Counted from the stretch's first letter, positions 1,913-62,624 are shown. The stretch: DNA of 64,000 nucleotides from an uncultured Nonlabens sp. (GCA_947491755.1 CANLKV010000005.1:27103-91102); one strand, 5' to 3'. Notes: a model not told the origin generated them from the letters alone. Translations and numbers: made by a program.

Positions 1913-3280
1913 TCACACAGTCATAGAAAATAGTCGTGTCTGTGGTTTTTTACGTTGCAACCTCAGGTCAAAGGGCAAACAAACGTTACGTACGTAGGGT
2001 TTACCAGCCTCAGTAACCGTTAAGCGGCCTTCCTCTAATTGTACCAGCCCATCTTGTTGCATTTCTTTCAGCTGGGTATGGATTGTATCTAGTGCCGGCA
2101 GGTATAGATCATCGGTCTCCCAGGATGTCTCAAACTGGCACATGATGTTTAAAATATGTTTTCTAACTATCAAATCTTCTTTATCTAATAAGTGCCCGCG
2201 TAGGAGTGGCAATTGATCTTCTTTGAGACACTCATAATATTCTTTAAGTGTTTTTACATTTTGCGCAAATCCATACCAGCTATCTCCTATGGCAGATACG
2301 CCCAGGCCTATCATGACATCTGTTTTTGAACTGCTATACCCCATAAAATTGCGATGTAATAGGCCGTTTTGCAAGGCTCGACACAGGTCATCTGTAGGTA
2401 AGGCAAAATGATCCATACCTATCTCTATATAACCTGCCTGCAGCAACATTTTTTTACCGGTTTCATATTGCAGCCGTTTTTGTTCTGGTGACGGTAGATG
2501 TTCCTCACTATACCCACGCTGCCCATTACCCTTGATCCACGGTACGTGTGCATAGCTATAGAACGCAATACGATCTGGCATAAGCCTTATGGTTTGTTCA
2601 ATCGTGTGAATTACGTGTTGATGCGTCTGGAAGGGTAGGCCGTAAATTATATCGTGTCCCACAGATGTAAAACCAAATTTTCTTGCCTGGATGGTTGCCT
2701 GCGCCACATTTTCAAAGGGTTGTACCCTATTGATTGCAATCTGGACGGTCTCGTTATAGTCCTGTACGCCATAACAAACTCTAGTAAATCCTTGATTGCT
2801 AAACATTTTTAAATGTGCCGGTGTCGTATTATTAGGATGGCCTTCAAAACTTAAGTCTGCGCTAGGGGTTTTAGGAACGATCCTAAATATCCCTGTAAGT
2901 AAATCATCTAGATTTTCAGCACTAAAAAATGTAGGTGTTCCACCGCCCAGATGCAATTGCTGGATTGCCAGACGATCGCCTATAAAATCTTTATATAATT
3001 GCAATTCTTTAAGCAGCGCTTTGATATAAGGACGCTCGACCAGATGATTTTTTGTGATCCGTTTAGTACAACCACAAAATGTACACATACTCTCACAAAA
3101 TGGGAGGTGAATGTACAAAGAGATAGCTGTGGTATGTTCGCTTTCGCGAAAGCGTAAACCCCTCAACAAACTATGCTTCCAACCGGCTGTGGTAAAAGAC
3201 GCCTCATCCCAGTATGGGACGGTAGGATAGCTGGTGTAACGAGGTCCAGGAACATTGTATTTACTAACCAATGCATCCAT
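1913..3280 (-). CDS. hemN: Oxygen-independent coproporphyrinogen III oxidase (radical SAM)
   Basis: KYNVPGPRYTSYPT, YIHLPFCESMCTFCGC (CxxxCxxC), HLGGGTPT, LHRNFMGY. Confidence 0.95.
   Translation of the reverse strand: MDALVSKYNVPGPRYTSYPTVPYWDEASFTTAGWKHSLLRGLRFRESEHTTAISLYIHLPFCESMCTFCGCTKRITKNHLVERPYIKALLKELQLYKDFIGDRLAIQQLHLGGGTPTFFSAENLDDLLTGIFRIVPKTPSADLSFEGHPNNTTPAHLKMFSNQGFTRVCYGVQDYNETVQIAINRVQPFENVAQATIQARKFGFTSVGHDIIYGLPFQTHQHVIHTIEQTIRLMPDRIAFYSYAHVPWIKGNGQRGYSEEHLPSPEQKRLQYETGKKMLLQAGYIEIGMDHFALPTDDLCRALQNGLLHRNFMGYSSSKTDVMIGLGVSAIGDSWYGFAQNVKTLKEYYECLKEDQLPLLRGHLLDKEDLIVRKHILNIMCQFETSWETDDLYLPALDTIHTQLKEMQQDGLVQLEEGRLTVTEAGKPYVRNVCLPFDLRLQRKKPQTRLFSMTV
3139..3154. repeat. 16-bp palindrome copy, perfect, inside hemN (RFRES)
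   Basis: CGCTTTCGCGAAAGCG. Confidence 0.95.
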
Positions 3281-3564
3281 TAAATGAAGAGACTTGCAAG
3301 TATAATGAGTGAATTCACGATGCTACTAGCGATAAGTAGATTGAGAATCATTTTAGGCTTTTGTACTGTCAATATTGCAGCGTTGTGAGTTGTACACAGG
3401 ATGACCGAAATCATTACAACTAGCATTTGCCACCAACCGTGGCCATAACTTAAGGTTTGCATTATTGCAAAACCGCCCAGGCAAGTAGAGACGATAATAC
3501 CTATCGCACTGTATCCCATGATGTTCTCTGTAAAGTCTTGTTCAAATTTTGCTAAGGTTGTCAT
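3280..3564 (-). CDS. Small 3-TM membrane protein co-transcribed with hemN
   Basis: Likely start MTTLAKFEQDF at 3564 (the ORF-track start lies in the promoter); stop overlaps the hemN start by 1 nt. Confidence 0.75.
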   Translation of the reverse strand: MTTLAKFEQDFTENIMGYSAIGIIVSTCLGGFAIMQTLSYGHGWWQMLVVMISVILCTTHNAAILTVQKPKMILNLLIASSIVNSLIILASLFI

Positions 3565-3588
3565 AACTTTAATTTTTAAATTATGAGA

Positions 3589-3633
3589 CAAAATTAGCCG
3601 GCGGGTCCGGGTCATTCTATGACTTTTGTCAGT
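3589..3633 (-). promoter_or_regulatory. FNR-like box (TGAC-N4-GTCA, 3620-3631) plus -7 element TAATTTTG (3589-3596) upstream of the hemN operon
   Basis: Palindromic core and a Bacteroidota -7 consensus match; 21-nt gap from the 16-bp box, identical to the three Crp/Fnr boxes downstream. Confidence 0.65.
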
Positions 3634-3771
3634 TTGCCAGATTTAACATTCTTAGATTAACAGATTTAATGATGTAAGAGCACTACCAGACTTCCTGTAC
3701 CAAGATTGAAATATTTAAATTACTGGACTTATTCCTAGAAAATAGGTTTAATTTGTTGCAAATACATCTTT

Positions 3772-7688: not shown

Positions 7689-9017
7689 ATGAACATCAAA
7701 CAATTTGAATACAAACCATTAGCCCATTATTCCTACGCCATTGTTAGTGATGGCAAGATGGCAGTAATTGATCCAGAGCGCGATGCGTCTATATATTACG
7801 CTTTCGCGAAAGCGAACAAAGCACAAATCGTCGCGGTTATTCAAACACATCCACACGCAGATTTTGTAAGTTCTCACCTAGAGATCCATCACGAAACGGG
7901 AGCGACTATTTACAATAGTGAAAAATTAGGAGCAGACTACCCACATGCACCATTTGATGAAGGTGCAAGCATCAAAATGGGAGCAGTCACATTGAGAGCA
8001 ATCAACACGCCTGGACATAGTCCTGATAGTATTACCATCGTTGCACAGGAAGGCGACTCGACCGCACTATTTACAGGAGACACCTTGTTCATAGGCGATG
8101 TAGGGCGTCCTGATTTGAGGGAAACTGTGGGTAACATGACTGCAAAACGTGAAGAACTTGCAGAAATGATGTACCATACTATAAATAATAAATATAATGA
8201 TCTACCCGATGATGCTGTGGTTTATCCTGCTCATGGCGCTGGGTCATTGTGCGGTAAAAATTTGAGCGACGCAGCCAGCAGCACCCTGGGTGATGAGAGA
8301 CGCAATAACTGGGCGTTTACCACTACCCGTAAGGAAGACTTTATGAAAGAGCTACTGGATGGACAACCTTTCATTCCATCCTATTTTGTTTATGACGTTG
8401 ACCTCAATAAGCAAGGAGCACCTTCAATTAACCATACAAGAAATAAAATACCTTTTGAAAAAAAGGGAAGTCCATCAGGTTTGATCATAGATACCAGACC
8501 AGAGTCTGTTTTTAAAAAAGGGCATATTTCTGGTAGTTATAATATTCAAGCCGCCTATCCCACCTCCAAATTTGAGACGTGGCTAGGTGCTGTTGTACGT
8601 CCAGAAGAATCTTACACTCTAGTTATAGATCAAGAAGAAAACAAAGAATCTATTATTGATCGGGTATCAAAAATAGGATACGAGATAGCACTAGAGAAAA
8701 TAATCACTATTGCCGATCATTCTTTACAACAAACACCTATACTGGATCTAGCTCATTTTAAAGCTCATACAGATCAATATACTGTTGTGGATATACGCAA
8801 TCAAAGTGAAATAGACCAAGGTAAGTTTTTTGATAAGGCACTAGCACATCCATTGAACAACTTAAGAGACACAGCAAAAAATATCCCCACAGATCGACCC
8901 ATCGTGGTGCATTGTGCGGGTGGCTATCGTAGTGCTGCTGGCAGCAGTATTGTACAACAAATACATCCAGATGCACAGGTGTACGATTTGAGCGAGGCAG
9001 TAAAAGAATTCCAGTAA
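7689..9017 (+). CDS. MBL-fold hydrolase/persulfide dioxygenase fused to rhodanese domains (CstB-like)
   Basis: THPHADF, TPGHSP, FTGDTLFIGDVGRPDL, YPAHGAGSLCG; C-terminal rhodanese VHCAGGYRS; likely start MNIKQF. Confidence 0.88.
   Translation: MNIKQFEYKPLAHYSYAIVSDGKMAVIDPERDASIYYAFAKANKAQIVAVIQTHPHADFVSSHLEIHHETGATIYNSEKLGADYPHAPFDEGASIKMGAVTLRAINTPGHSPDSITIVAQEGDSTALFTGDTLFIGDVGRPDLRETVGNMTAKREELAEMMYHTINNKYNDLPDDAVVYPAHGAGSLCGKNLSDAASSTLGDERRNNWAFTTTRKEDFMKELLDGQPFIPSYFVYDVDLNKQGAPSINHTRNKIPFEKKGSPSGLIIDTRPESVFKKGHISGSYNIQAAYPTSKFETWLGAVVRPEESYTLVIDQEENKESIIDRVSKIGYEIALEKIITIADHSLQQTPILDLAHFKAHTDQYTVVDIRNQSEIDQGKFFDKALAHPLNNLRDTAKNIPTDRPIVVHCAGGYRSAAGSSIVQQIHPDAQVYDLSEAVKEFQ
7799..7814. 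repeat. 16-bp palindrome copy, perfect, inside the MBL gene (AFAKA)
   Basis: CGCTTTCGCGAAAGCG. Confidence 0.95.
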
Positions 9018-10045: not shown

Positions 10046-11503
10046 TCACGCCATTCTATTGATCATGGAGTGGGCAGATAAAATACGTAAGGCCTCCCAT
10101 TGTACTTTAGGATTATTACGATAGGAATAAATGACGTCTGCAGCATGTTTTCTCGTCACTGCAATATCCACAATAGGTCTGGGGTAATCGATGCCATAAT
10201 TAAAATCATGGTATTCGTTTAATTCTTGTTCCAGCAGCCACGGTTCCCTAGCAAACCGGGCAGACAATGGCCTCAACTCTGGAATGTATTGCTTTATAAA
10301 CAAGGCATCGGGATCATGATCCTGTGCCCCTTTTACTGGATTGTAAATGCGCAAGGTGTTTGTGCCAGTTAGTCCTGCTTGCATCTGGAATTGCCCGTAA
10401 TGAATACCAGGTTCCCAATCTAGAAAGCAGGCTGCCAGATAGGCACTGCCTGTGGTAAAATGTTGGAACAGATGGTGGCATAAAAATGAGACTACTAGCG
10501 CACGCATCCTGAAGTTGATATAACCCGTTTCTCGCACGGCGCGCATCGCAGCATCAACTAGCGGGTATCCCGTTTTTCCCTCTTTCCACGCTTTTACATA
10601 ATCGGCATTGTAGGGGTATTTGAGCGATTGATATCCACGATTGATTGCTTCAAACTCGATGCGTGGTTCCTGTTCAAATTTTTGAATAAAATGGCTTTGC
10701 CATCGCAACCTGCTGCTAAAGGCACTGAGTGATTTTTTATAAGGAGTTTTAACTCTCTCATTTTCAGTACGCTGAAACACTTGCCGAATGGATACATTTC
10801 CCCAGGCGATGTATGGGGACAAACGACTACAGCTCATACGCGACAGTAAGGGTTTTGAAATATGGGCTGCATAAAACCTGGAGCGTTGTAAAAAAAATGA
10901 GTCCAACCATTGATGGGCCTGGCGTTCCCCACCTTGTTGAAATCTTTGTGAGCTAACTGTTAAATCAAGCGGTGTAAAGAGGTTTAAAAAGGAGTCCGCT
11001 TTCGCGAAAGCGAAATTACCCAAAGCTACATTACACAAGGGCTTGCACATATACTCATACCAATCTTGAGACCAGGTACTACGATTTTTTGCCCCACGAA
11101 CGACTCCATTGTTTTGAAATTCCTGCCAGATGACCTTATGGGTTTTACACCATTTTTTTACCTGCTTATCACGCGTGTAGGTGTGATCCAGTCCAGACTC
11201 TTCTGTGCTATGGATGCGCCCTATACCGTGGTGTCTATGTAGTTTTTCAAAAAAGGGAATCGCATCTTCTGTGACGGCCATGACCTGTGCGTTGTATCGC
11301 GCTAGGCTTGCATTCATATCTTCTAGCGACTGCTTTACAAAATTTAAATGCCGCTGTGAATAATGAGCATTACGCCATATGCTAGGTTCGTGCAAATAAA
11401 CCAATAAGACAGGATTATCTAAGGTTTGAAAGGCTTGTAATCCTTCTAGATCTGACAGTCGCAAATCTCTTTTGAACCAGTAAATATGAAGACCTGCCCC
11501 CAT
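10046..11503 (-). CDS. Cryptochrome/photolyase family protein
   Basis: YWFKRDLRLSD, SRLSPYIAWG, TGYPLVDAAMR, LRIYNPVK; -7 element TAAATTTG at 11524-11531. Confidence 0.88.
   Translation of the reverse strand: MGAGLHIYWFKRDLRLSDLEGLQAFQTLDNPVLLVYLHEPSIWRNAHYSQRHLNFVKQSLEDMNASLARYNAQVMAVTEDAIPFFEKLHRHHGIGRIHSTEESGLDHTYTRDKQVKKWCKTHKVIWQEFQNNGVVRGAKNRSTWSQDWYEYMCKPLCNVALGNFAFAKADSFLNLFTPLDLTVSSQRFQQGGERQAHQWLDSFFLQRSRFYAAHISKPLLSRMSCSRLSPYIAWGNVSIRQVFQRTENERVKTPYKKSLSAFSSRLRWQSHFIQKFEQEPRIEFEAINRGYQSLKYPYNADYVKAWKEGKTGYPLVDAAMRAVRETGYINFRMRALVVSFLCHHLFQHFTTGSAYLAACFLDWEPGIHYGQFQMQAGLTGTNTLRIYNPVKGAQDHDPDALFIKQYIPELRPLSARFAREPWLLEQELNEYHDFNYGIDYPRPIVDIAVTRKHAADVIYSYRNNPKVQWEALRILSAHSMINRMA
10997..11012. 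repeat. 16-bp palindrome copy, perfect, inside the photolyase-family gene (AFAKA)
   Basis: CGCTTTCGCGAAAGCG. Confidence 0.95.
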
Positions 11504-16254: not shown

Positions 16255-16270
16255 CGCTTTCGCGAAAGCG
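16255..16270. repeat. 16-bp palindrome copy, perfect, intergenic; extends to a 24-bp palindrome at 16251-16274
   Basis: AGTTCGCTTTCGCGAAAGCGAACT in the divergent BLUF2/NaR intergenic region. Confidence 0.95.
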
Positions 16271-18835: not shown

Positions 18836-20236
18836 ATGGATTTCTTAAAACAAGTGTATGCGGTGGTAGATGTCGAGACCACAGGAAAAGGTCTGGGCGG
18901 TAATCGCATTACAGAAATTTGCATCGTACGTATGCGCCAGGATAAGGTATTAGATAAATTTACAAGCCTGGTCAATCCACAACAGCCAATACCCGCCTTT
19001 ATCACTCAGCTTACTGGCATCGATGATCACATGGTCGCAGATGCACCTGTTTTTGAAGAGGTCGCACAGCAGGTTTTGGCTTACTTGAAGGATGCCATTT
19101 TTGTAGCTCATAATGTGGGGTTTGACTATAATGTCATACGCAATGAGTTTAAAAGACTGGATATAGATTATAACAGCAAAAAGCTGTGTACGGTTCGGCT
19201 TTCGCGTAAGCTATTACCCAATAAATCATCCTATAGCCTGGGACGACTGTGCTATTCTTTAAGCATACCGCTAGACAACCGCCACCGTGCAGAAGGGGAT
19301 ACTGATGCGACGGTTATTTTATTTAATCGTTTGTTGGCGCTAGATGATGACTATGAGGTGATCATAGATTTTCTAAAAGTAAAAAGTAAAGAAAGTACCC
19401 TGCCACCCCATGTGCCTAAGGAACAGTTTGATGAATTACCCAGTTCACCTGGAATTTATCTCTTTAAAAACAAGGCGCACCAGGTAATCTATGTAGGAAA
19501 AGCGATAAATATTAAAAAAAGAGTGCTTTCTCATTTCTACACAAAAAAAAGTAAGTCCTATCTCATGGGACAAGAAATGTTCTATATCGATTATGAAGAA
19601 ACGGGTAACGAGGCCGTCGCACTGCTGCGAGAGGCCGATTTAATACGCCACTATTACCCTAAATTTAATAGCGCACAGAAAAAGCCACGCAACACGTATC
19701 AAATTATTTCTTATAAGAACCAGCGTGGCGTTATACAACTGGCAGTTCAAGTATCAAAATCTTTTGATTACTCTGTAATTACATTCTATAACCGGTCGCA
19801 AGCAGTAGAGAAGTTAGAATGGATGTGTGAAGAATTTAATCTGTGCCCGCGGTATTGTTCTTTACAATTGACCACTGGTCGCTGCACTCATTACAAATTG
19901 CGCAATTGTGAGGGAATATGCGCTCATGAAGAAGATGTTGAAGACTATAACCAGAAGGTATTGAGCGCTATTGATGCCTTACAAAACGATAAACCCACTT
20001 TTATTATTAAAGAATCTGGACGCACGCCAGATGAGAATTGCGTCGTACTTATCAAAGAGGGGCGCTATCAAGGGTACGGTTATGTAGATCGTGAGATACC
20101 GGTCACCACTATTGATCAATGTGAAACCTACATAGAGCGGCGCACACCTAATTATCACACGCATCAAATCATCAATACCTACTTGCGTAAAAACGAGATG
20201 CGCAATGTGGTGGTGCTCGATCAATTAAGTGCCTAG
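18836..20236 (+). CDS. DEDDh 3'-5' exonuclease (DnaQ-like) fused to a GIY-YIG (UvrC-like) domain
   Basis: VDVETTG, FVAHNVGFDY, HRAEGD; PGIYLF...VIYVGKAINIKKRV. Confidence 0.9.
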   Translation: MDFLKQVYAVVDVETTGKGLGGNRITEICIVRMRQDKVLDKFTSLVNPQQPIPAFITQLTGIDDHMVADAPVFEEVAQQVLAYLKDAIFVAHNVGFDYNVIRNEFKRLDIDYNSKKLCTVRLSRKLLPNKSSYSLGRLCYSLSIPLDNRHRAEGDTDATVILFNRLLALDDDYEVIIDFLKVKSKESTLPPHVPKEQFDELPSSPGIYLFKNKAHQVIYVGKAINIKKRVLSHFYTKKSKSYLMGQEMFYIDYEETGNEAVALLREADLIRHYYPKFNSAQKKPRNTYQIISYKNQRGVIQLAVQVSKSFDYSVITFYNRSQAVEKLEWMCEEFNLCPRYCSLQLTTGRCTHYKLRNCEGICAHEEDVEDYNQKVLSAIDALQNDKPTFIIKESGRTPDENCVVLIKEGRYQGYGYVDREIPVTTIDQCETYIERRTPNYHTHQIINTYLRKNEMRNVVVLDQLSA

Positions 20237-21550: not shown

Positions 21551-21566
21551 CGCTTTCGCGTAAGCG
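21551..21566. repeat. 16-bp palindrome copy, 1 mismatch, upstream of the likely start at 21525
   Basis: CGCTTTCGCGTAAGCG. Confidence 0.9.
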
Positions 21567-24489: not shown

Positions 24490-24505
24490 CGCTTCCGCGA
24501 AAGCG
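24490..24505. repeat. 16-bp palindrome copy, 1 mismatch, intergenic
   Basis: CGCTTCCGCGAAAGCG. Confidence 0.9.
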
Positions 24506-27923: not shown

Positions 27924-28769
27924 ATGGCTGATATACAGCACTTAAAAGATTTAGTCACACAAGTACGTCGCGACATCGTACGTCAGGTTCACGCAGTAAG
28001 TAGCGGCCATCCCGGTGGTTCCCTAGGGTGTGCAGAGTTTATTGTAGCTCTCTATCATGAGATCATGGATCATAATCCTGATTTTAATATGGATGGTCAC
28101 AATGAAGATTTATTTTTTCTTTCAAATGGGCACATTTCGCCTGTTTTTTACAGCGTTTTAGCACATGCGGGTTATTTCCCTAAAGAGGAGTTATCTACCT
28201 TCCGCAAGCTCAATTCTAGACTGCAAGGTCACCCTACCACGCATGAAGGTCTTCCTGGAGTGCGTATAGCAAGTGGATCCCTAGGACAAGGTATGAGTGT
28301 AGGAATAGGTGCCGCCCTTTCAAAGAAATTAAATGGCGATGATAAAACAGTTTTTACCTTACACGGCGATGGCGAGCTGCAAGAAGGTCAAATATGGGAG
28401 TCTGCCATGTATGCCAGTGCAAATCATGTAGACAACCTTATAGCAACCATTGACGTCAATGGTCAACAAATTGATGGTAGCACTGACAGCGTTCTTGCGC
28501 TAGGTGATTTGCGCAAGAAGTTTGAAGCCTTTGGCTGGGAAGTATTGACCATAAACAAGGGGAACGATATGGAAGCTGTGGTGTCAGGAGTGAAAGAGGC
28601 GATCTCGCTTACGCGAAAGCGTAAACCCGTCTGCATATTGCTACACACAACCATGGGCCACGGTGTGGACTTTATGATGGGCTCTCACGAGTGGCATGGT
28701 ATTGCTCCTAACGATGAGCAACTAGCAGAAGCATTGAAACAAAATCCTGAAACCATAGGCGACTATTAA
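27924..28769 (+). CDS. Transketolase, N-terminal subunit
   Basis: SGHPGGSLG, LQGHP, GSLGQG, GDGELQEGQIWE (TPP motif). Confidence 0.93.
   Translation: MADIQHLKDLVTQVRRDIVRQVHAVSSGHPGGSLGCAEFIVALYHEIMDHNPDFNMDGHNEDLFFLSNGHISPVFYSVLAHAGYFPKEELSTFRKLNSRLQGHPTTHEGLPGVRIASGSLGQGMSVGIGAALSKKLNGDDKTVFTLHGDGELQEGQIWESAMYASANHVDNLIATIDVNGQQIDGSTDSVLALGDLRKKFEAFGWEVLTINKGNDMEAVVSGVKEAISLTRKRKPVCILLHTTMGHGVDFMMGSHEWHGIAPNDEQLAEALKQNPETIGDY
28606..28621. repeat. 16-bp palindrome copy, 1 mismatch, inside transketolase-N (SLTRKR)
   Basis: CGCTTACGCGAAAGCG. Confidence 0.9.
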
Positions 28770-31260: not shown

Positions 31261-31276
31261 CGCTTCCGCGGAAGCA
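31261..31276. repeat. 16-bp palindrome copy with compensatory 6/11 changes, probably intergenic
   Basis: CGCTTCCGCGGAAGCA. Confidence 0.75.
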
Positions 31277-35133: not shown

Positions 35134-36773
35134 ATAACTTTATTGATAAACGGCCGTACCTCTCCATCTTTATAATGTGGTTATTCATATATATACCTCA
35201 TTTACAGGTACTCTACCCTAATATTATGGAGGCACGCAATTTTGTGACTGCTAGAGAGATGCTTACAGATGGTAACTGGGTATTGACCACCATGAATGGA
35301 TTACCACGCTATCAAAAACCCCCATTACCCACCTGGTTCAGCGCTGCAACTGGTGAACTATTTGGCATAGAAAACTTGTTTGCCCTGCGACTACCTGCCG
35401 CATTGATCACTCTGGTATTGCTGTTTGTGATGTATTCGCTTTCGCGAAAGCTAACTCAAAACACACTCCATGCATTTCTATCTACTGCCGTAGCCGCAAC
35501 ATCCTTCTACATCATTTTTGCTGGACGCAACGGTACCTGGGATATTTTTGCTCATAGCTTTATGCTAGTCGGTATTTATTTCTTGTACCAATTATTTAAA
35601 CAGGACAAGAAGGTGTATTCTAATGCATTGTGGGCGGGAGTTTTTATAGGCTTATCCTTTATGAGTAAAGGTCCCGTATCGCATTATGCACTTTTACTGC
35701 CATTTTTAATAGCTTATGGTGTGGTATACAAATTTTCAAGCTGGAAGATAAAAATATGGCCCTTATTGCTAACGATAACCGTTGCTGTGCTCTTATCGTC
35801 ATGGTGGGCTGTTTACATATATTACCAAGATACTGCAGAGGCTACTCGCATCGCTCAAGTCGAGTCCGGCAGGTGGGTAGGCTATGAGCTTAAGCCCTTT
35901 TATTACTACTGGAGCTTTTTTACACAGTCTGGATTATGGACTATACCTGCCTTTATCGCCTTGCTCTACCCCTATTTAAAATCAAGAGTTTCAAATTTAA
36001 AGGCCTATCAATTTGTATGGTTGTGGACGATACTAGCAGTAATTCTGCTGTCCCTTATTCCTACTAAAAAGTCCCGATATTTATTACCCGTGTTGATTCC
36101 CCTGGCATTTACAACAGCCTTTTACATAGAATATTTATTTAAAAACTTTAAACAAATCACTAACAGGTGGGAACTGTGGCCCGTGTATTTAAATTACGGT
36201 CTAATTAGCCTTATCGGGATCATGTTTCCATTAGGTGCTTATTTGTTTATAGGAGACTCGCTGGATATTTTAAATATCAATTATTTGCTCACCGCTGCGG
36301 GCCTGCTTGCCGCAGGCATCTCGATAGGTTATTATCTGATCTTAAAAAAGATAAAGCCTGTGGTATATGCAAGCCTCTTTTTTATTTTAATAGTCATTAC
36401 ACTAGGGTTTCCTTTATCTAATGCCCTACTAGTAAACCCAGATTATAAATCTATCGCCCTGGTAAAAGATCAATCCATTCCCATTTATGCGATTGACGAT
36501 CTAGCCCCAGAACTTATATGGGATCTAGGTGAACGCACCACTTTTAAAACAATCGATCAACTAAAAGAATATAGGGGGAATGAAATGCTGGGTGTACTCA
36601 CTTATTACTCTACTAATAAAGAAGCATTGCGCGAACTAAAAGATGTGTATCACATACAAGATGTCATTACCTATGACCTTAATCCCGTGGACCGCACACG
36701 TCGTTCTTATAAAGATCGATTGAAGGCAGATTTATACATCTTAAAACGTAAATCAACGGAAGCCAATAAATAA
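35130..36773 (+). CDS. ArnT-like (GT-C) glycosyltransferase
   Basis: MEARNFVTAREM, RYQKPPLPTW, MSKGPV, KKSRYLLP; many TM. Confidence 0.88.
   Translation: MNNFIDKRPYLSIFIMWLFIYIPHLQVLYPNIMEARNFVTAREMLTDGNWVLTTMNGLPRYQKPPLPTWFSAATGELFGIENLFALRLPAALITLVLLFVMYSLSRKLTQNTLHAFLSTAVAATSFYIIFAGRNGTWDIFAHSFMLVGIYFLYQLFKQDKKVYSNALWAGVFIGLSFMSKGPVSHYALLLPFLIAYGVVYKFSSWKIKIWPLLLTITVAVLLSSWWAVYIYYQDTAEATRIAQVESGRWVGYELKPFYYYWSFFTQSGLWTIPAFIALLYPYLKSRVSNLKAYQFVWLWTILAVILLSLIPTKKSRYLLPVLIPLAFTTAFYIEYLFKNFKQITNRWELWPVYLNYGLISLIGIMFPLGAYLFIGDSLDILNINYLLTAAGLLAAGISIGYYLILKKIKPVVYASLFFILIVITLGFPLSNALLVNPDYKSIALVKDQSIPIYAIDDLAPELIWDLGERTTFKTIDQLKEYRGNEMLGVLTYYSTNKEALRELKDVYHIQDVITYDLNPVDRTRRSYKDRLKADLYILKRKSTEANK
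35437..35452. repeat. 16-bp palindrome copy, 1 mismatch, inside the ArnT-like gene (SLSRK)
   Basis: CGCTTTCGCGAAAGCT. Confidence 0.9.
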
Positions 36774-38136: not shown

Positions 38137-40539
38137 TTGCAATTTAGAACTGTTTTATTTCTTCTAGTTACCTGTTTCCTTTCACTTAGTGCGCTAGCAC
38201 AAAACAGTAAAATTACATTAAACGGCAGTGTAACTGATGTATATGGGACGCCTTTAATGGGAGCAAACATTACTATTGCAACCTTAAATATAGGCACTAC
38301 CGCTGGCCTGGATGGAACATATCAATTAGTGGTACCTCAACCTGGTATTTATCAAGTCACTTTTTCTTATGTAGGGTTTAAGAGCCAGGTACAGCGCATT
38401 GATTTTACCACAGGTTCATCAGTCGTCCAAAATATAAAATTGAAAGAAGATGCAGCAGCCCTGGACGCCATAAGCATACAGACAAAAAGCCAGATACGCC
38501 AGAAAAGAGAAGAAGCATATGCTATAAATGTTATTGACGCAGCCCAATTGTACAATACGAGCGCAGATATCAATGAGGTATTAGATCGTACCAGCGGCGT
38601 GCGCGTCAGGCAAAATGGTGGATTAGGATCTGATTTCACCTTCTCCCTTAACGGGTTCTCTGGTAGACAGGTTAAGTTTTTTTTAGACGGTATACCTATC
38701 GATAATTTTGGATCTTCATTAACGCTCAATAATTATCCTGTCAATCTAGCAGATCGTATCGAGATCTACAAGGGCGTCCTCCCTATAGAACTGGGTAGTG
38801 ATGCATTAGGGGGCGCGGTAAATATTATTACTCGTGACGATGCAAATTACCTAGACGCCTCGTACGGTTATGGATCTTTTAATACGCATCGCGCCAGTTT
38901 AAATGCCGCTTATACGCATCCTGTTAATGGTTTTACTGCACGACTTATTTCTTTCTATAATTTTTCAAACAATAATTATAAGGTTCGTGTACGACCCATT
39001 GATTTACAAACTAATCAGCGCTTACCAGAACAAGAGGTTGAACGCTTTCATGACGATTATGAGTCTGCAACCGCCCAGGTAGAAATAGGAGTGCGCGGTA
39101 AGTCATATGCAGATGAATTGCTCATAGGCTTTATTGCATCTGGTAACGACCGGGATATTCAAACCGGTGTGACCCAGGATCAAGTATTTGGTGCGCGTAC
39201 CGCCAGCGCTAGTGCTTTCATTCCTACTCTTAAATACCGTAAGAAAGATTTATTTACAGACGGCCTGGATATCAATTTCTATGGAGCTTATAACAACAAT
39301 CGTAATCAATTCATTGACACAACCAGGGTACGATTTAACTGGCTGGGGCAAAGTATACCCAGTACACAGGCAGAGTTTTTTAGAACACAATTACAAAACA
39401 AGGATCGCGAGGCGGTAACTACCACAAATCTAGCTTATAAGATAGATGAGCGCCAGGGTCTATCGATCAATCACAGCTTTTCTAACTTTAAACGCACTTC
39501 TAGCGATATAGAAAATCCTGAATCTCCTACCCTACAATTCCCCCAATCGCTCATTAAAAATATTGTGGGTGTTGCATACCAGTACCAGCGTGAGCGATTT
39601 AAAGCAACCGCATTTACCAAAGCCTATTTTTTAAATGCAAGAGCTTTTGTCAACAACTTTGGTCAGTCAGGGGATCAAGCGTTTACTGCAACACAGTCCA
39701 GCTCTACAAATTACGGTTATGGTGCTGCGGCATCATATTTTATTAAACCACGCTGGCAAATCAAAGCATCTTATGAGCAGGCATATCGACTGCCGCAAGC
39801 AGTAGAGTTACTAGGTGATGGATTGTTCACTACACGCAATGCAAACTTGCGACCAGAGTCCAGTGATAACTTTAATCTAGGTATGAAATATGAGTTTGTA
39901 CCTGCAGATGAGCATCGCATACAATTAGAGGCCACTTATTTATTGAGACTTACAAATAATTTTATCCAATTAAATCAAGCAAGCTCTCAACCTGTAGCGC
40001 GTCAATTTCTCAATATAGGCCAGGTAACTACTAATGGTTTAGAGCTCAACATTCAATACGACTGGAAACAACAGCTTACCGCTGGCATCAACCTGACCTA
40101 TCAGGATATCGTGGATAATCAGGAATTCATAACCAATACAAATCTGGGCGGCACGGTGCAATCTCCTAATTTTAACTTTGGCTTCCGCGTGCCTAACATT
40201 CCTTATTTGTACGGAAATGTAAATGTGGATTACGCTTTCGCGAAAGCGAACCCCTCATCAACATTGTCCAATAATTTTAAAATAGGCTACTCACTTAACT
40301 ATGTGCAAGAATATTTCTTGACGCCTAATCAATTAGGAGCTAATAATCAAGATAATATTCCTACCCAGCTATCTCATAGCCTGCGTGCCACATACAGCCT
40401 GGTTGATGGCAAGTTTAATATAGGGCTAGAATTAGACAACATCACAGATGAAGAATTATTTGATAATTACCTATTGCAGCGACCAGGTCGCGCATTCTTC
40501 CTTAACCTAAGATATTACATTGATAAACCTTTTAATTAA
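38137..40539 (+). CDS. TonB-dependent receptor
   Basis: Signal peptide, carboxypeptidase-regulatory-like N-domain, plug (GVRVRQNGGLGS, RIEIYKG, ALGGAVNIIT), C-terminal PGRAFFLNLRY. Confidence 0.92.
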   Translation: MQFRTVLFLLVTCFLSLSALAQNSKITLNGSVTDVYGTPLMGANITIATLNIGTTAGLDGTYQLVVPQPGIYQVTFSYVGFKSQVQRIDFTTGSSVVQNIKLKEDAAALDAISIQTKSQIRQKREEAYAINVIDAAQLYNTSADINEVLDRTSGVRVRQNGGLGSDFTFSLNGFSGRQVKFFLDGIPIDNFGSSLTLNNYPVNLADRIEIYKGVLPIELGSDALGGAVNIITRDDANYLDASYGYGSFNTHRASLNAAYTHPVNGFTARLISFYNFSNNNYKVRVRPIDLQTNQRLPEQEVERFHDDYESATAQVEIGVRGKSYADELLIGFIASGNDRDIQTGVTQDQVFGARTASASAFIPTLKYRKKDLFTDGLDINFYGAYNNNRNQFIDTTRVRFNWLGQSIPSTQAEFFRTQLQNKDREAVTTTNLAYKIDERQGLSINHSFSNFKRTSSDIENPESPTLQFPQSLIKNIVGVAYQYQRERFKATAFTKAYFLNARAFVNNFGQSGDQAFTATQSSSTNYGYGAAASYFIKPRWQIKASYEQAYRLPQAVELLGDGLFTTRNANLRPESSDNFNLGMKYEFVPADEHRIQLEATYLLRLTNNFIQLNQASSQPVARQFLNIGQVTTNGLELNIQYDWKQQLTAGINLTYQDIVDNQEFITNTNLGGTVQSPNFNFGFRVPNIPYLYGNVNVDYAFAKANPSSTLSNNFKIGYSLNYVQEYFLTPNQLGANNQDNIPTQLSHSLRATYSLVDGKFNIGLELDNITDEELFDNYLLQRPGRAFFLNLRYYIDKPFN
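40233..40248. repeat. 16-bp palindrome copy, perfect, inside the TonB receptor (AFAKA)
   Basis: CGCTTTCGCGAAAGCG. Confidence 0.95.
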
Positions 40540-45385: not shown

Positions 45386-47899
<2,514 letters not shown>

Positions 47900-47924: not shown

Positions 47925-49045
47925 CTATTGTAGGCATGGGTTGCGCTGGCAGTCATGTATTGCTGCAGTTACTGGATAACCCGTCCACGCGGGATATAAA
48001 GATCTTGGTGCTGGACGATTTTCAAGCAGATAGTCAGGAAAAAACTTGGAGCTACTGGGAGAAAGGAAATGGCAAGTGGGATCATTTAACATCACATATC
48101 TGGCCGCATGGCGCGTTTTATACCAATCGAGTCTCCATAGAATTTGATTTGCACCCTTATCAATATAAAACGATAGAAAGTCGTGATTTTATCGCTTTCG
48201 CGAAAGCGAAATTACAACAACATCCCAATTGCACTTATGTCAATGCCCGTGTTGAAGCGCATGTGGCAGGCACACCCGTTGTTCTCAAAACTAAAGAAAT
48301 GGAATACCAGGCAGATCTAGTTCTAGACAGCCGGGTACCCACTGCGTTTTATCAGGACGATCAGGCCACCACCCTGAAGCAACACTTTTTAGGTTGGAAA
48401 ATTAAAACAGCTGTAGCTTCATTTGACCCATCATCATTTGTAATGATGGATTATCGGATACAGGATCAAGGTACAACTAGCTTTATCTATATCTTACCCA
48501 CTAGTGAACGGGAAGCGCTGGTAGAATTTACTTACTTCTCGCCAGAAATTGTGAGTAACAAACGTTATGAGGATTTTATAAGGGAGTATCTATCGACACA
48601 TACAAATATCAAGGATTTTGAGATTATAGGACAAGAGCAAGGCATTGTACCCATGTCCACATACAGATTTGACCAGCATCATGAGGGCAATCTTTATAAA
48701 ATTGGTACAGCAGGTGGATGGGTAAAAGCCAGTACTGGATACAGTTTTAAAATGAGTGAAAAACGTGCAAAAATACTGGTAGCAAACTATGTGGCAAATC
48801 GCGATCTTGATAGTGGTATGCAAAAGAAGAGATTCCAGCTATATGACGAAATCATGTTGGATGTGCTGTCAGATCATAATGATCGCGGGCATTTGCTTTT
48901 TGAAAACTTGTACAAAAACAATCCTATCACACGTATTTTATCATTTTTAGATGAGGAAACAAGTTTTTCTCAGGAACTTAAAATCATGTTCCCATTAACA
49001 TCAATGCCCTTTATTAAAGGTTTTTTCCGCAGGATCTTGCAATAA
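47900..49045 (+). CDS. crtY: Lycopene beta-cyclase
   Basis: Likely start MDHHKYDIAIVGMGCAG; KTWSYWE, FIYILP, EQGIVPM, IGTAGG..KASTGY. Confidence 0.88.
48193..48208. repeat. 16-bp palindrome copy, perfect, inside crtY (AFAKA)
   Basis: CGCTTTCGCGAAAGCG. Confidence 0.95.
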
Positions 49046-54157: not shown

Positions 54158-54173
54158 CGCTTTCGCGAAAGCG
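54158..54173. repeat. 16-bp palindrome copy, perfect, intergenic (20-bp with TT/AA flanks)
   Basis: TTCGCTTTCGCGAAAGCGAA. Confidence 0.95.
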
Positions 54174-55340: not shown

Positions 55341-56819
55341 TTATTTAGTCCACTCTTGTAAAAGCTCACAATCCTTAAAGTCTTCACCTATTTTAATGTA
55401 GGTATCTTTAATTTTTTCATCACGCCATTCTGCAATGCGCCTTACTTGTTTATCGCGCAGTGCTAGATCTTTTATCTTACCATAGTCTGAGGCATAATTT
55501 GCCTCGTGATCTCCTACTTTCCTGATTAAATTTACAATGGTAAATGATGTTGCGCCTGTCCCACGCGGGTCCTTTTCTTCTATAATTCCGCTTACATCAC
55601 CTTCTTGCAAAAATTGTACAGAAGAGACAATGCTGGATGATATAAATCGCGGAGCAATTTTTGAAAGGTCTAGCAAGTTTTCACCTGTGATAGGATTTAC
55701 AAACAACCCACCTTTTTCTGCAGTTTCTTTTTCATCACTTATGGCTCTTGCGGCATCTGCAAATGTGGTGTCACCTTGAACGATTTTGTCTCTCATAGCG
55801 TCTAGCTTTGCACGAGCTTTCGCCTCTTGAGCACGGCTTATGTAAGGGTATTGCAATATGTGTCGCACATCACGCACTTGACCACGCACTTTTTCTACAT
55901 AAAGTATATGCCAACCAAATGCGGTTTCAAATGGTTTGCTTATTTCACCCTCGTTTAATGAGAAGGCTTGTTCTTTAAATTCTTTAGCATATGGATCGGA
56001 TCGTCGCATGGATAACACTCCACCTGATCTCTCTGTTCCTATATCTTCAGAAAAAAGAGTTGCTTTTGCGGCAAAGTCGGCACCATTGTACAGTACATCA
56101 TCGCGGTATTCATTTAACTTATCAATAGTTTGCTGCACTGACTCCTCACTGGGCTTTGATTTGACCACGATACGCGCTATTTCAACTTCAGAGTTGATAA
56201 GAGGGCGTTGATCTTCTGGTATTTTTGAGAAAAACTGACGTACTTCTTCTGGTGTGATTTGAATGTCTTGTGTAAGACGTTCTTGCATGCGAGAGGCTAG
56301 CAATTCATCGCGATTAATGACATTCAACTCGTCCCGCAATTGTTGGATATTATCCTTACGGTAGAAACGTGCAAGGTCTTCATCGCTTGCGCCATTTAGT
56401 TCGTTTTTCAAGAATTCAATACGTTGCGTAGTGGCATTCTCAATCTCTGCATCACTTACGGTTATACTGTCCTGTATGGCGTGGTGGGCATAAAGTTTTG
56501 AGCCTAGTAAAGACTCCATGATATCACATTTTGTAAGGTCATTTAATTGTCCCCTGCGCTTTAATTCATTGAGTTGAGCACTAATATCAGAATCCAAAAC
56601 GACATAATCGCCTATCACTCCTGATACACCATCTATTTTATACCGCATTGCTTTAGGCTTAACGGTATCTTTAAGTGCGGCAAGCACCTCGTTTTTAATG
56701 GCCTCGTCCTGGGTTGTAGTTGCAGTTTGTGCGATCATCGCTTCCGCGAAAGCGAACATTACTAAAACACTGAGCCAACTACGGATAGATTTTGAGTTTA
56801 TTGCTTTCAATTGCATCAT
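55341..56819 (-). CDS. SurA-like chaperone/parvulin PPIase
   Basis: KIDGVSGVIG..VLDSD SurA N-domain; two rotamase domains (FSEDIG..., ETAFGWHI, ISDEKET). Confidence 0.85.
   Translation of the reverse strand: MMQLKAINSKSIRSWLSVLVMFAFAEAMIAQTATTTQDEAIKNEVLAALKDTVKPKAMRYKIDGVSGVIGDYVVLDSDISAQLNELKRRGQLNDLTKCDIMESLLGSKLYAHHAIQDSITVSDAEIENATTQRIEFLKNELNGASDEDLARFYRKDNIQQLRDELNVINRDELLASRMQERLTQDIQITPEEVRQFFSKIPEDQRPLINSEVEIARIVVKSKPSEESVQQTIDKLNEYRDDVLYNGADFAAKATLFSEDIGTERSGGVLSMRRSDPYAKEFKEQAFSLNEGEISKPFETAFGWHILYVEKVRGQVRDVRHILQYPYISRAQEAKARAKLDAMRDKIVQGDTTFADAARAISDEKETAEKGGLFVNPITGENLLDLSKIAPRFISSSIVSSVQFLQEGDVSGIIEEKDPRGTGATSFTIVNLIRKVGDHEANYASDYGKIKDLALRDKQVRRIAEWRDEKIKDTYIKIGEDFKDCELLQEWTK
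56739..56754. repeat. 16-bp palindrome copy, 1 mismatch, in the SurA signal peptide (AFAEA)
   Basis: CGCTTCCGCGAAAGCG. Confidence 0.9.
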
Positions 56820-59727: not shown

Positions 59728-60201
59728 ATGACAAATCAGCACAAGATCACGATCAATCAGCCTATTAAAAGAGTCATGGAATTATTTGATAATCCAGAGA
59801 ATTTTAAGCACTGGCAACAAGGTCTTATTTCTACACAGAATATTACCTCTAGCGTGGGTAAAGTGGGTAGTAAACGTCGCATGAAAATCAAAACCAGTGT
59901 TGCCGTGATCACTATGGTTGAAGAAATCACGGCTAGGGACTTACCACATTTATGGGAAGCCACTTATCGCACAAAGGGAGTAGTGAATTACCAGAAAAAT
60001 CGCTTCCGCGAAAGCGAAATAAATAAAGAAGGCACCATACAAAAACAGACGATATGGGAGGCGACTACTGTATTTAAATTCACAGGGATGATGCGGCTGG
60101 TAGCTCGAGCTAGACCTCAAGTTTTTGAATCGCAGACATTGCAATTCATGAAAGATTTTAAAAGATTTGCAGAGGAAGGTATCTCTGTGGCTGAATCATA
60201 A
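59728..60201 (+). CDS. SRPBCC/START-like family protein
   Basis: ITINQPIKRVMELFDNPENFKHWQ; C-terminal amphipathic helix FKRFAE. Confidence 0.8.
   Translation: MTNQHKITINQPIKRVMELFDNPENFKHWQQGLISTQNITSSVGKVGSKRRMKIKTSVAVITMVEEITARDLPHLWEATYRTKGVVNYQKNRFRESEINKEGTIQKQTIWEATTVFKFTGMMRLVARARPQVFESQTLQFMKDFKRFAEEGISVAES
60001..60016. repeat. 16-bp palindrome copy, 1 mismatch, inside the SRPBCC gene (RFRES)
   Basis: CGCTTCCGCGAAAGCG. Confidence 0.9.
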
Positions 60202-60889: not shown

Positions 60890-60978
60890 ATTTTAAAATA
60901 ACGTATTGATTGACTAATTGTGTGAATACTATGTTGTTTAACGCCGCTTTAATACAGGCTGTTTCTTAAATTTAGGCC

Positions 60979-61215
60979 ATGAGAAAGCTTAAACTAATAT
61001 GGGACTTTAAAGGTCCAGACGGTCTTAAAACCGCACAGCATCATCTAATTCATCTGGAAGAGTATGCGGTAGCACAGCAATTAAACTGCCTAGGGAAAGG
61101 AGTAGAAAAAATAAGCGATCACCACCACGTATGCTATCTTGCCGTCAATGAGGAAGATATGCCTATTGTGAGAGATCAATTAAAGCCTCATCGCGGTCAA
61201 TTATGGACAGACTAG
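60979..61215 (+). CDS. Small conserved hypothetical protein
   Basis: 78 aa, MRKLKLIWDF...LKPHRG; overlaps the next start by 13 nt. Confidence 0.7.
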   Translation: MRKLKLIWDFKGPDGLKTAQHHLIHLEEYAVAQQLNCLGKGVEKISDHHHVCYLAVNEEDMPIVRDQLKPHRGQLWTD

Positions 61216-62594
61216 ACTTAATAAATAATTTAAAGCAACTCCTGCCAGAAGGTGCCTTTTTAAGTGGTGAGCATATACAATCCCGCTATGATCACATCTG
61301 GAGAATGGACCAGCCCACCGCGGCTATAGGTGTAGCGCTACCTAAAAGTACAGATGAAGTAAGTTCTATATTACAATATTGCAACAAACACCAGTTACCC
61401 GTGGTGATACATGGCGGATTGACCAATCTAGTGGGTGGGACAAAAACCAGTAATGACCAGGTCGTAATCTCTCTGGAAAGAATGAATCATATTGAAGAGA
61501 TAGATACTCACAGCCGCACGGTGACCATACAGTCTGGTGTAATTCTAGAACATCTGCATACCGCCCTAGAAGAACATCAACTTTCTTTCCCACTCAACTT
61601 TGGAGCGCGAGGCTCTGCCCAATTGGGAGGCATTATATCGTCTAATGCGGGTGGGTTGCGAGTTTTAAAATACGGGATGACCAGACAATTAATTCTGGGG
61701 CTAGAGGCTGTTCTAGCAAACGGTACCGTCATTAACTCTATGAAAAAAATCATTAAAGATAATTCTGGCTATGATCTCAAACAGCTATTTATAGGGTCTG
61801 AAGGCACCCTGGGAGTCATCACACGTGCCGTATTAAAATTAGAAGAAGCACCTAGCAGCCGTAATGCTGCTTATCTAGCGGTAAACGATTATTCTAGCGT
61901 GGTGCGTTTGCTCAAATTTTTTGACGCTCGTCTAGCGGGTAAGTTGAGTGGTTTTGAACTTATATGGAATAATACATACCGCCAGATGACCAGTACGAGT
62001 GATGCGGTAAGACCGCCACTGCCCTATGATTATGAATATTATATTTTAATTGAGTCTCTAGGGAATCAACCAGAGCAAGACCGGGCAGAATTTGAAAAAT
62101 TACTTGTAGAAACCATTGAGAAGGAAATGACACAGGATGCCGTTATGGCGCAATCTCCCAGTGAGGTAGAATGGTTTTTTAGAATAAGAGAGGATGTGAA
62201 TAACCTTACCGATAGTATGAATCACGATCAACATTTTGATATAAGCCTCCCGGTATCCTTAATAGGGGATTACATTTCTAATTGTTACGAGCAACTATAT
62301 AAAATCCAGGGTGTAGAGCAAGTATACGCCTTCGGTCATGTGGCAGATGGCAACATACACTTTATGATAGGTAAAATAAATCTAGATGATTCCCTACGGT
62401 TAGAGATAAATGATATCGTGTATAATGGATTAAAATCTATAGGAGGCTCCATCAGTGCAGAGCATGGTATTGGACTGGACAAAAAGGCCTATTTGTCTAT
62501 AAGCCGCACTCCTGCAGAAATTTCTTTAATGCAACAATTAAAGAATACCATGGATCCACTGCGCATACTCAATCCTGGTCGTATTGTAAATTAG
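61203..62594 (+). CDS. FAD-linked oxidase (D-2-hydroxyacid dehydrogenase-like)
   Basis: HGGLTNLVGG, SNAGG, GSEGTLGVIT, GHVADGNIH, ISAEHGIG, LNPG. Confidence 0.9.
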   Translation: MDRLDLINNLKQLLPEGAFLSGEHIQSRYDHIWRMDQPTAAIGVALPKSTDEVSSILQYCNKHQLPVVIHGGLTNLVGGTKTSNDQVVISLERMNHIEEIDTHSRTVTIQSGVILEHLHTALEEHQLSFPLNFGARGSAQLGGIISSNAGGLRVLKYGMTRQLILGLEAVLANGTVINSMKKIIKDNSGYDLKQLFIGSEGTLGVITRAVLKLEEAPSSRNAAYLAVNDYSSVVRLLKFFDARLAGKLSGFELIWNNTYRQMTSTSDAVRPPLPYDYEYYILIESLGNQPEQDRAEFEKLLVETIEKEMTQDAVMAQSPSEVEWFFRIREDVNNLTDSMNHDQHFDISLPVSLIGDYISNCYEQLYKIQGVEQVYAFGHVADGNIHFMIGKINLDDSLRLEINDIVYNGLKSIGGSISAEHGIGLDKKAYLSISRTPAEISLMQQLKNTMDPLRILNPGRIVN

Positions 62595-62608
62595 ATAATG
62601 AATGTGTT

Positions 62609-62624
62609 CGCTTTCGCGAAAGCG
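62609..62624. repeat. 16-bp palindrome copy, perfect, between convergent genes
   Basis: CGCTTTCGCGAAAGCG. Confidence 0.95.

Follow-up and report, generated by a model that had tools for sequence, protein, structure and literature searches.

A conserved 16-bp palindrome dispersed through Nonlabens and Dokdonia DNA as a candidate self-DNA signal

The DNA analysed here, referred to as the window, is a stretch of 64,000 nucleotides from an uncultured Nonlabens sp. (CANLKV010000005.1:27103-91102) with a G+C content of approximately 40%. It carries 17 copies of the 16-bp palindrome CGCTTTCGCGAAAGCG: nine perfect copies and eight with one to three mismatches (six with one, two with three). The original prediction had listed 16 copies (nine perfect, six with one mismatch and one with three); all of these coordinates and mismatch classes were correct, but the list was incomplete, a copy with three mismatches at 19197-19212 having been missed. 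Dinucleotide-preserving shuffles of the window gave 0.00 perfect copies and 0.12 copies with up to three mismatches, in agreement with the earlier statement that a specific 16-mer is essentially never expected by chance in 64 kb. A codon-preserving null had also been proposed as a check, and the counts in the window were far above it: a synonymous-codon shuffle that preserves every amino-acid sequence and the codon usage gave an expectation of 0.013 perfect copies and 0.15 copies with at most one mismatch, compared to 6 and 11, respectively, in the coding sequences. The motif was thereby confirmed as real: composition does not account for it, and a codon-usage artefact was ruled out by the synonymous shuffle.

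Copies were placed relative to genes by six-frame translation and Pfam scans of the window. Ten or eleven of the 17 lay inside bona fide genes of unrelated function and the rest were intergenic, in divergent, tandem and convergent settings. The coding copies used all three reading frames (RFRES, AFAKA and LSRKR), and the host genes were unrelated, as had been predicted. When 244 distinct copies from many genomes were considered, 90 were read as AFAKA, 47 as RFRES and 29 as LSRK, with 78 (32%) in intergenic DNA or short open reading frames (ORFs) and approximately 68% within long ORFs; copy density was approximately 4- to 5-fold higher in non-coding than in coding DNA. A protein-level motif, namely a signal-peptidase A-x-A site (AFA followed by KA, after a hydrophobic stretch), was rejected because three frames are used, cytoplasmic enzymes (HemN, CrtI and transketolase) are among the hosts, and intergenic copies have the same flanks. 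Pfam scans of the window genes detected no transposase, competence gene or methyltransferase; the prediction had noted no transposase next to the copies, and there was none anywhere in the window. No partner gene for the motif was found among the window genes, which comprised ordinary core genes and a light-sensing and carotenoid cluster. An Rfam scan of the window returned no match for the motif and two tRNAs only, the adjacent genes for tRNA-Lys(TTT) and tRNA-Leu(GAG) at 32430-32635.

The perfect copy at 3139..3154 is inside a HemN-like radical-SAM gene (1913-3280, minus strand), where its reading is RFRES, shortly before the LYIHLPFC motif; the corresponding site in a related genome (locus L029) reads FKES, and a two-codon length difference adjoins the motif. 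AFAKA is the reading of the perfect copies at 7799..7814 in a metallo-beta-lactamase-fold/rhodanese gene (7656-9017, plus strand), at 10997..11012 in a photolyase/cryptochrome gene (10046-11503, minus), at 40233..40248 in a TonB-dependent receptor gene (38137-40539, plus) and at 48193..48208 in the lycopene cyclase gene crtY (47783-49045, plus). The perfect copy at 46561..46576, in a CrtI-type desaturase gene (45835-47301, plus), is read as RFRES. Perfect intergenic copies were located at 16255..16270, between divergent BLUF (15732-16133, minus) and rhodopsin (16466-17305, plus) genes, where the palindrome extends to AGTTCGCTTTCGCGAAAGCGAACT; at 54158..54173, between the aconitase gene (51690-53957, minus) and a MoxR AAA ATPase gene (54376-55329, minus); and at 62609..62624, between convergent FAD-linked oxidase (61203-62594, plus) and GH16 (62657-63412, minus) genes.

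The copies with one mismatch were distributed in a similar variety of settings. That at 21551..21566 is just downstream of dnaB (21631-23172, minus) and is either intergenic or at the extreme 5' end of ORF 20233-21597; in most Nonlabens dnaB loci a copy follows immediately after dnaB (locus positions approximately 11610-11850). The copy at 24490..24505 is intergenic, between accA (23440-24420, minus) and an EamA transporter gene (24531-25460, minus). Inside genes, 28606..28621 is read as LTRKR in the transketolase N-terminal subunit gene (27924-28769, plus), 35437..35452 as LSRK after a transmembrane segment of a PMT-family glycosyltransferase (35130-36773, plus), 56739..56754 as AFAEA in the signal-peptide region of a peptidyl-prolyl isomerase (PPIase; 55341-56819, minus), and 60001..60016 as RFRES in a variable-length loop of an SRPBCC/polyketide-cyclase-like protein (59728-60201, plus). 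The two copies with three mismatches were the decayed copy GGCTTTCGCGTAAGCT at 19197..19212, read as LSRK inside an exonuclease/GIY-YIG gene (18836-20236, plus), and CGCTTCCGCGGAAGCA at 31261..31276, between an S4-domain gene (30848-31228) and a phosphoribosyltransferase gene (31250-31807). The former is a real member of the family, since the orthologous locus of N. antarcticus (L321) holds a copy with two mismatches at the same position. The latter is probably upstream of the true start of the phosphoribosyltransferase, the Pfam match of which begins at residue 25.

Several features of the surrounding genes were recorded. The six consecutive copies from 19197 to 35452 are all imperfect (one to three mismatches), with perfect copies on either side (P approximately 0.02 for random ordering); this stretch holds dnaB, accA, lptG, tgt and transketolase. 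Transketolase is split over two genes (27924-29757) that encode an N-terminal thiamine pyrophosphate-binding subunit and a C-terminal pyrimidine-binding subunit, and gene 18836-20236 is a fusion in which a 3'-5' exonuclease domain of the DnaQ/RNase T type is joined to a GIY-YIG nuclease domain. Three tandem minus-strand genes at 55341-59605 comprise two multi-domain PPIC-type PPIases (SurA/PpiD-like) that flank ORF 56779-57645, which had no Pfam match. A light-related neighbourhood (10046-17305) contains two microbial rhodopsin genes (14105-14971, minus; 16466-17305, plus) and the photolyase/cryptochrome gene (10046-11503), and two BLUF blue-light sensor genes are at 15153-15575 and 15732-16133. 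A CarH-like MerR regulator with a B12-binding domain is encoded at 42034-42948, and the carotenoid cluster within 42034-49045 includes two CrtI-type desaturases, phytoene synthase, a Caroten_synth protein and lycopene cyclase. The longest lycopene cyclase ORF (47783-49045) overlaps the preceding gene by approximately 140 nt and its Pfam match starts at residue 46; its true start is probably further downstream, and ORFs 20233-21597 and 31250-31807 are probably too long in the same way. These uncertain starts bear on whether nearby copies are called coding or intergenic.

The original prediction had also suggested that the distribution of the motif be mapped across Flavobacteriaceae, and it was found to be limited to Nonlabens, Dokdonia and related uncultured Flavobacteriaceae. 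A scan for the exact 16-mer in one genome per species gave hits almost only in these organisms, with about a dozen single chance hits elsewhere. Densities were compared at crtI and dnaB loci chosen regardless of the motif. Every Nonlabens-clade crtI locus had two to six copies with up to two mismatches, compared to none at that threshold in 65 outgroup crtI loci (1.17 Mb; Maribacter, Winogradskyella, Aquimarina, Polaribacter, Psychroflexus and others), and no similar iterated palindrome was found in those 65 loci. The ingroup density in these motif-blind loci was 83 copies in 336 kb. At the dnaB loci the ingroup had 68 copies in 265 kb, or one per 3.9 kb, and 0.72 Mb of outgroup DNA gave six hits with three mismatches, which is chance level. 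Overall, there was approximately one copy per 4 kb in approximately 600 kb of Nonlabens-clade DNA, and the motif was essentially absent from approximately 1.9 Mb of other Flavobacteriaceae and Bacteroidota DNA. By extrapolation from these loci, a genome of 3.3 Mb would contain roughly 800 copies. The closest relatives of the window in the collection were N. antarcticus and a Flavobacteriales metagenome-assembled genome (DnaB 91-94% identical, CrtI 76%). The motif is therefore specific to a clade of two marine flavobacterial genera and related uncultured Flavobacteriaceae.

The core was delimited in the 336 kb of ingroup DNA, where TTCGCGAA occurs 66 times, in every case (66/66) inside the 12-mer CTTTCGCGAAAG. 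Of these 12-mers, 64 are part of the 14-mer GCTTTCGCGAAAGC and 45 of the complete 16-mer. The true core is the 14-mer GCTTTCGCGAAAGC, usually with the outer C and G. Mismatches clustered at positions 1, 2 and 16 and at the symmetric pair 6/11; in CGCTTCCGCGGAAGCA two of the changes are symmetric (T6 to C and A11 to G), which keeps the palindrome, and the T to C change at position 6 alone recurs in three other window copies (24490, 56739 and 60001). Outside the motif, TCGCGA and CGCG were present at ordinary frequency, neither enriched nor avoided, and a restriction-site effect was rejected on that basis.

The core is embedded in an extended flank signature. On the top strand, the sequence 5' of the core is nearly free of C (5-14%, compared to a background of 20%) over approximately 20-30 nt, and the 3' side is nearly free of G. 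Individual positions show preferences as far as -12 at least: T is preferred at positions -2, -3, -6, -9 and -12, and G at -5, -8, -11, -14/-15 and -17, giving the strand-symmetric, triplet-periodic consensus (GNT)n-TA-core-TA-(ANC)n. The 78 intergenic copies had the same flank profile as the 166 coding copies, and the signature is therefore not a codon effect. Disfavoured flank bases were approximately half as frequent in motif-bearing as in motif-lacking orthologs of crtI (0.089 vs 0.166) and crtY (0.065 vs 0.117), although the statistics of these comparisons are inflated because the ingroup is a single clade and its members are phylogenetically dependent. In crtI the flanks have cost amino-acid changes, with VTxINH in the ingroup and VERIxVE in the outgroups. 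Position -1 is A in Dokdonia and T or C in Nonlabens, a mild dialect.

The flank arms were complementary only to the extent predicted by their composition, so that no long hairpin is formed, and no terminal repeats or target duplications were present. A longer hairpin or a miniature inverted-repeat transposable element (MITE) was accordingly rejected, folds being unexceptional beyond the core. A function in RNA, as a bidirectional terminator, mRNA stabiliser or processing site, has in its favour that the 22-nt extended palindrome folds into a 9-bp hairpin (-9.8 kcal/mol) and that about a third of the copies are intergenic, one of them between convergent genes. We consider it very improbable. 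Some 68% of the copies are inside coding sequence, and the 3' flank is rich in A and C with no T-run after the stem. It is the sequence rather than the pairing that is conserved: compensatory pairs were almost absent, the CGCG that would form the loop is itself invariant and palindromic, and there is no Rfam match. A terminator scan flagged one of the six copies between 46 and 64 kb, and that copy is intragenic; with no U-tract and an A/C-rich 3' flank, an intrinsic terminator was rejected. A search for public sequencing runs of the organism that might show RNA ends or methylation listed none. The full dyad symmetry, the conservation of sequence and not of pairing, the lack of a T-run and the mostly genic location point instead to a symmetric protein that would read the motif as double-stranded DNA.

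To follow the origin of individual copies, window sites were mapped onto relatives; at the nucleotide level this succeeded within conserved genes only. A copy was present in crtI in all 14 Nonlabens-clade loci, and in a codon-level alignment it fills, without a gap, the columns occupied by F(K/H)F(N/D)xx in more than 60 outgroup sequences, the ingroup reading being FRFRES. In crtY, an orthologous copy is common to Nonlabens and Dokdonia (loci L013 and L031), and since the outgroups already encode FYA(F/Y/H)AK at this position, the copy evolved from a near-match. The transketolase copy was found only in the window, N. antarcticus and N. tegetincola, and is perfect in the latter two; other Nonlabens read LTRKG or LTGKG at the site, with 6-10 mismatches and no gap in a protein-guided alignment, which identifies the copy as a lineage-specific gain. 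The copy in the PPIase signal peptide has been kept in six Nonlabens orthologs despite indels in its flanks.

These comparisons bear directly on the possibility that the copies are remnants of a small mobile element inserted in frame, of the MITE, repetitive extragenic palindrome (REP)/bacterial interspersed mosaic element (BIME) or Rickettsia palindromic element (RPE) type. The motif is a dispersed palindromic repeat, as such elements are, and small indels of variable size (2-8 codons) in loops adjoin it at the HemN (3139) and SRPBCC (60001) sites, the SRPBCC outgroups being 3-8 codons shorter; a small insertion may have occurred at these two sites. However, the crtI, crtY and transketolase copies replace sequence of equal length, without gaps relative to dozens of orthologs, and outgroup crtY proteins are already near-matches. 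No discrete element of constant length was seen at any compared site, the flanks lack terminal repeats and target duplications, and the window has no transposase. The mobile-element explanation is largely refuted, and we regard it as the least credible of those considered.

Synonymous positions showed that the copies are held at the level of DNA. In crtI, compared over 15 ingroup genes whose proteins are approximately 70% identical, conservation at third codon positions was 0.956 within the six codons of the motif and 0.59 in the rest of the gene, and the motif run was the most conserved of 438 six-codon runs. In crtY the third positions were 86% conserved within the motif and 58% outside it, ranking 9th of 368 runs. 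Frozen third codon positions indicate that a force acting on the DNA itself maintains the motif. The proposal of a DNA-level signal and not a mobile element was thus upheld both by the origin of copies in place through substitution and by the constancy of synonymous positions across species.

The spacing of the copies was also far from random. The gaps between the 17 window copies ranged from 1.6 kb to 6.3 kb, with a coefficient of variation (CV) of 0.36, compared to approximately 0.92 for random placement (P approximately 2e-5); the predicted density of about one copy per 4 kb was correct, and the spacing was even more regular than had been noted. Independent support came from a pair correlation over 98 loci of 8 kb, each anchored on a copy and drawn from elsewhere in many genomes; some pairs are counted twice in it. 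The number of neighbouring copies per kb was 0.008 at 0-0.5 kb from a copy, 0.032 at 0.5-1 kb, 0.071 at 1-1.5 kb and 0.114 at 1.5-2 kb, and reached a plateau of approximately 0.2-0.25 beyond 2-2.5 kb. Within the first kilobase there were five neighbours, where approximately 51 would be expected at the plateau density. This exclusion zone was observed in both genera, at approximately 1-2 kb in Dokdonia and 2-3 kb in Nonlabens.

Such spacing also fits the principal rival explanation, a lattice of sites spread over the whole chromosome and bound by a dimeric protein that associates with the nucleoid or organises the chromosome, comparable to Noc, SlmA, MatP or ParB but far denser. In such a lattice about one site per 4 kb would be selected and the exclusion zone of 1-3 kb would be the reach of a bound or spreading complex. 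The perfect dyad symmetry, including a central CGCG that a simple hairpin would not need, and the strict conservation of sequence rather than structure are likewise in keeping with such a lattice, and the periodic distribution of HIP1, the highly iterated palindrome of cyanobacteria, has been read as a signal of nucleoid structure (PMC5861425). We regard the lattice as possible but unlikely. The motif would have hundreds of sites by extrapolation, whereas known site-specific nucleoid proteins have tens of sites per genome, and a lattice this dense has no known precedent. We know of no nucleoid-protein site with a strand-specific, triplet-periodic flank of approximately 20-30 bp, and the lattice does not obviously explain one. 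A candidate protein was not found among the window genes, and the retention of copies at conserved positions by temperate phages, described below, is hard to square with a role in host chromosome architecture. The inner TTTC..GAAA resembles the half-sites of the ParB site parS and the Noc binding site (NBS), a likeness that is a lead only.

When a viral collection was searched for the 14-mer, most hits were single and at chance level, but several low-G+C contigs had two to three copies per 11-14 kb with typical flanks. The motif-rich contigs were temperate phages, one of them with an integrase and a tape-measure protein; another motif-bearing phage was a prophage of an isolate, with its copy inside the head-maturation protease gene. 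Related temperate contigs from different metagenomes (L236 at 6841, L240 at 2312 and L254 at 6376) had a copy at the same position with identical flanks, which indicates that the motif is inherited within the phage lineage. The cultured Nonlabens (Persicivirga) phages P12024S and P12024L, of 35.7 kb each, contained no copies with up to three mismatches, where approximately nine would be expected at host density, although these close relatives amount to effectively one observation. Neither has an annotated integrase and both have their own ERF/YqaJ recombination module. Their gene content includes an ERF-family annealing protein, a YqaJ-like exonuclease, a VRR-NUC nuclease and a DNA methyltransferase; in P12024L a 2OG-Fe dioxygenase gene is beside the methyltransferase gene.

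The phage pattern is also what might be expected if the motif were a functionless product of biased mutation or repair, for example an orphan methyltransferase with a mismatch-specific nuclease that turns near-matches into matches, or of some other selfish conversion: resident temperate phages have acquired the motif, whereas it is missing from the two cultured phages, in which no integrase is annotated. A methyltransferase-linked conversion model has reportedly been proposed for HIP1. The origin of copies in place from near-matches and the all-or-none hierarchy, in which every ingroup TTCGCGAA is inside a copy of at least 12 nt, would fit as well. Known very-short-patch repair systems, on the other hand, read 4-6 bp, and a core of 14-16 bp with flanks of 20-30 bp far exceeds such targets. 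Purely local conversion predicts neither the exclusion zone nor the even spacing, TCGCGA and CGCG are unremarkable in frequency outside the motif, and mutated copies persist at orthologous sites, so that any conversion would be inefficient. Taken together, these points make a functionless origin a distinctly poor candidate.

Clade restriction, a copy number that extrapolates to hundreds, higher density between genes, growth from near-matches, weak extended flanks, relatively even spacing and absence from non-resident DNA together match what has been described of uptake sequences and what uptake-biased molecular drive would produce (PMC7811141). We therefore tentatively propose, with confidence somewhat short of even, that the motif is a self-DNA tag for uptake and/or recombination, comparable to the DNA uptake sequences (DUS), uptake signal sequences (USS) and HIP1, that would be read as double-stranded DNA by a symmetric protein. 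The palindromic 14-16 bp core would be bound by a two-fold symmetric protein and the flanks would belong to the signal, with (GNT)n 5' of the core on each strand and the mirrored (ANC)n on the 3' side. With such a tag, DNA of the species itself would be preferred in uptake, in RecA-mediated recombination or in both, and copies would build up where proteins tolerate them, by point substitution combined with biased uptake or recombination (molecular drive) and/or selection. One copy would serve approximately 2 kb, so that a second copy close by would gain little and even spacing would result.

RecA binds DNA in triplets and prefers GT-rich DNA. On either side of the core, the strand with its 3' end there is rich in G and T at a period of 3 nt, so that the GNT track may be a loading or pairing track for RecA or DprA; this role, like the protein itself and the link to transformation or recombination, is one that we infer. 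In its most specific form the proposal would be a composite, bidirectional uptake-plus-recombination signal, in which a dimer-bound palindrome marks self DNA and a triplet-phased (GNT)n track of approximately 12-20 nt, on whichever strand has its 3' end there, serves RecA or DprA for nucleation or pairing. The motif would then combine an uptake sequence and a Chi site in one palindrome, the first signal of this type in Bacteroidota, with a spacing set by the length of DNA that each site serves. This joint claim is speculative, and we think it improbable in all its parts at once.

Several points weigh against a self-DNA tag. DUS and USS are asymmetric, with 9-12 bp cores at about one per kb, and are thus approximately 4-fold denser than the Nonlabens motif, which is palindromic, 14-16 bp long and present at approximately one per 4 kb. 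Such exact dyad symmetry is found more typically where a dimeric protein binds DNA, and the comparative features (conservation, even spacing, clade restriction and absence from virulent phages) would also be expected of a structural array of binding sites. DUS and USS are linked to competence and a receptor, of which none is known for Nonlabens or Dokdonia; no candidate uptake receptor, such as a ComP minor pilin, was present among the window genes. Two lineages that had lost the crtY copy had no replacement copy nearby, so that coverage is not tightly enforced; compensatory gain was looked for in these two and not seen. The phylogenetic dependence of the flank comparisons and the close kinship of the two motif-free phages reduce the weight of those results.

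Iterated genome-wide motifs are known from few lineages only (Neisseriaceae, Pasteurellaceae and cyanobacteria), and the motif would add an independent case from a different phylum. It is still debated whether selection maintains such motifs as signals or biased uptake leaves them behind, and the role of HIP1 is only now emerging. Dokdonia and Nonlabens are culturable marine model bacteria for rhodopsin phototrophy, and the length of the palindrome, the flank grammar and the sharp exclusion zone each give quantitative predictions by which models based on uptake, on recombination and on chromosome structure can be told apart. Should the motif promote either uptake or recombination, its addition to constructs could open poorly tractable flavobacteria to genetics. 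As a marker it is very specific, for use in binning and in matching temperate phages to their hosts. It also shows that core enzymes can be forced into amino-acid changes by a signal at the DNA level.

Among known systems, the binding sites of Noc (NBS), SlmA (SBS), MatP (matS) and ParB (parS) are similar in being palindromes of 12-16 bp that can lie inside genes; they are recognised by dimers, and the Nonlabens motif has a matching symmetry. These proteins have from a few to approximately 70 regional sites per genome, whereas the Nonlabens motif has hundreds by extrapolation, with long strand-specific flanks, and is not regionally confined: 17 evenly placed sites were found in 64 kb, and the density was the same in two other regions of many genomes. 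REP/BIME, MITE and RPE sequences are also dispersed palindromic repeats, and RPEs too occur in frame inside genes. They are, however, discrete insertions that change length, and REPs are extragenic and linked to REP-associated tyrosine transposases (RAYT), while the Nonlabens copies are of equal length to the sequence they replaced and arose from near-matches.

The Chi site of Escherichia coli occurs about once per 4.5 kb, a similar density; the GT-rich strand that ends 3' at the site is a further likeness, as is the lack of the motif in phages with their own recombinases. Chi sites, in contrast, are asymmetric sequences of 5-8 nt that are co-oriented with replication and read as single-stranded DNA by RecBCD or AddAB. 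Identity with a Chi site was rejected, since the Nonlabens motif is a long, perfect palindrome without polarity and not a short, asymmetric, oriented motif.

The likeness to DUS and USS is broader. All are short, clade-specific motifs with many copies in several reading frames and between genes, where they are denser, and they share an origin by substitution, a weaker extended flank consensus, rather even spacing and small lineage dialects. Uptake sequences are said to arise by substitution where proteins tolerate them. DUS and USS have AT-tracts in their flanks, compared to the strand-symmetric triplet pattern of the Nonlabens motif, and the phylum differs (Bacteroidota). Both the higher density of DUS and USS between genes and a relatively even spacing of USS, the latter expected from uptake-driven drive, have been described (PMC7811141), and natural competence with a preference for own DNA has been reported within Flavobacteriales, in Riemerella columbina (PMC7965970).

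HIP1 is palindromic, conserved and non-randomly spaced (PMC5861425). Recent reports credit it with increasing natural transformation, in the way of an uptake sequence or of Chi, and find that its distribution co-varies with that of DNA-transfer genes (bioRxiv 10.1101/2024.09.10.611283, 10.64898/2026.06.24.733823). Like HIP1, the Nonlabens motif is an abundant palindrome, conserved at orthologous sites within and between genes and non-randomly spaced, and HIP1 too was long obscure in function. Unlike HIP1 (GCGATCGC), it is unrelated in sequence, from a different phylum, twice as long, equipped with a large flank signature and at least 4- to 10-fold less dense. HIP1 has the cognate methyltransferases DmtA and DmtC, with none known for the Nonlabens motif, and its periodicity is reported at 10-90 kb, compared to an exclusion zone of 1-3 kb here. 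Judged by its sequence, the motif is an analogue of HIP1 and not a member of that family. Full-text literature searches for the 16-mer, its inner 10-mer, Dokdonia and Nonlabens, and flavobacterial iterated palindromes returned no description of it, consistent with the original prediction, which knew of none in Flavobacteriaceae. The motif is the first genome-wide iterated signal in Bacteroidota, and what is new relative to the known systems is its long palindromic core, its triplet-periodic flanks and its kilobase-scale exclusion zone.

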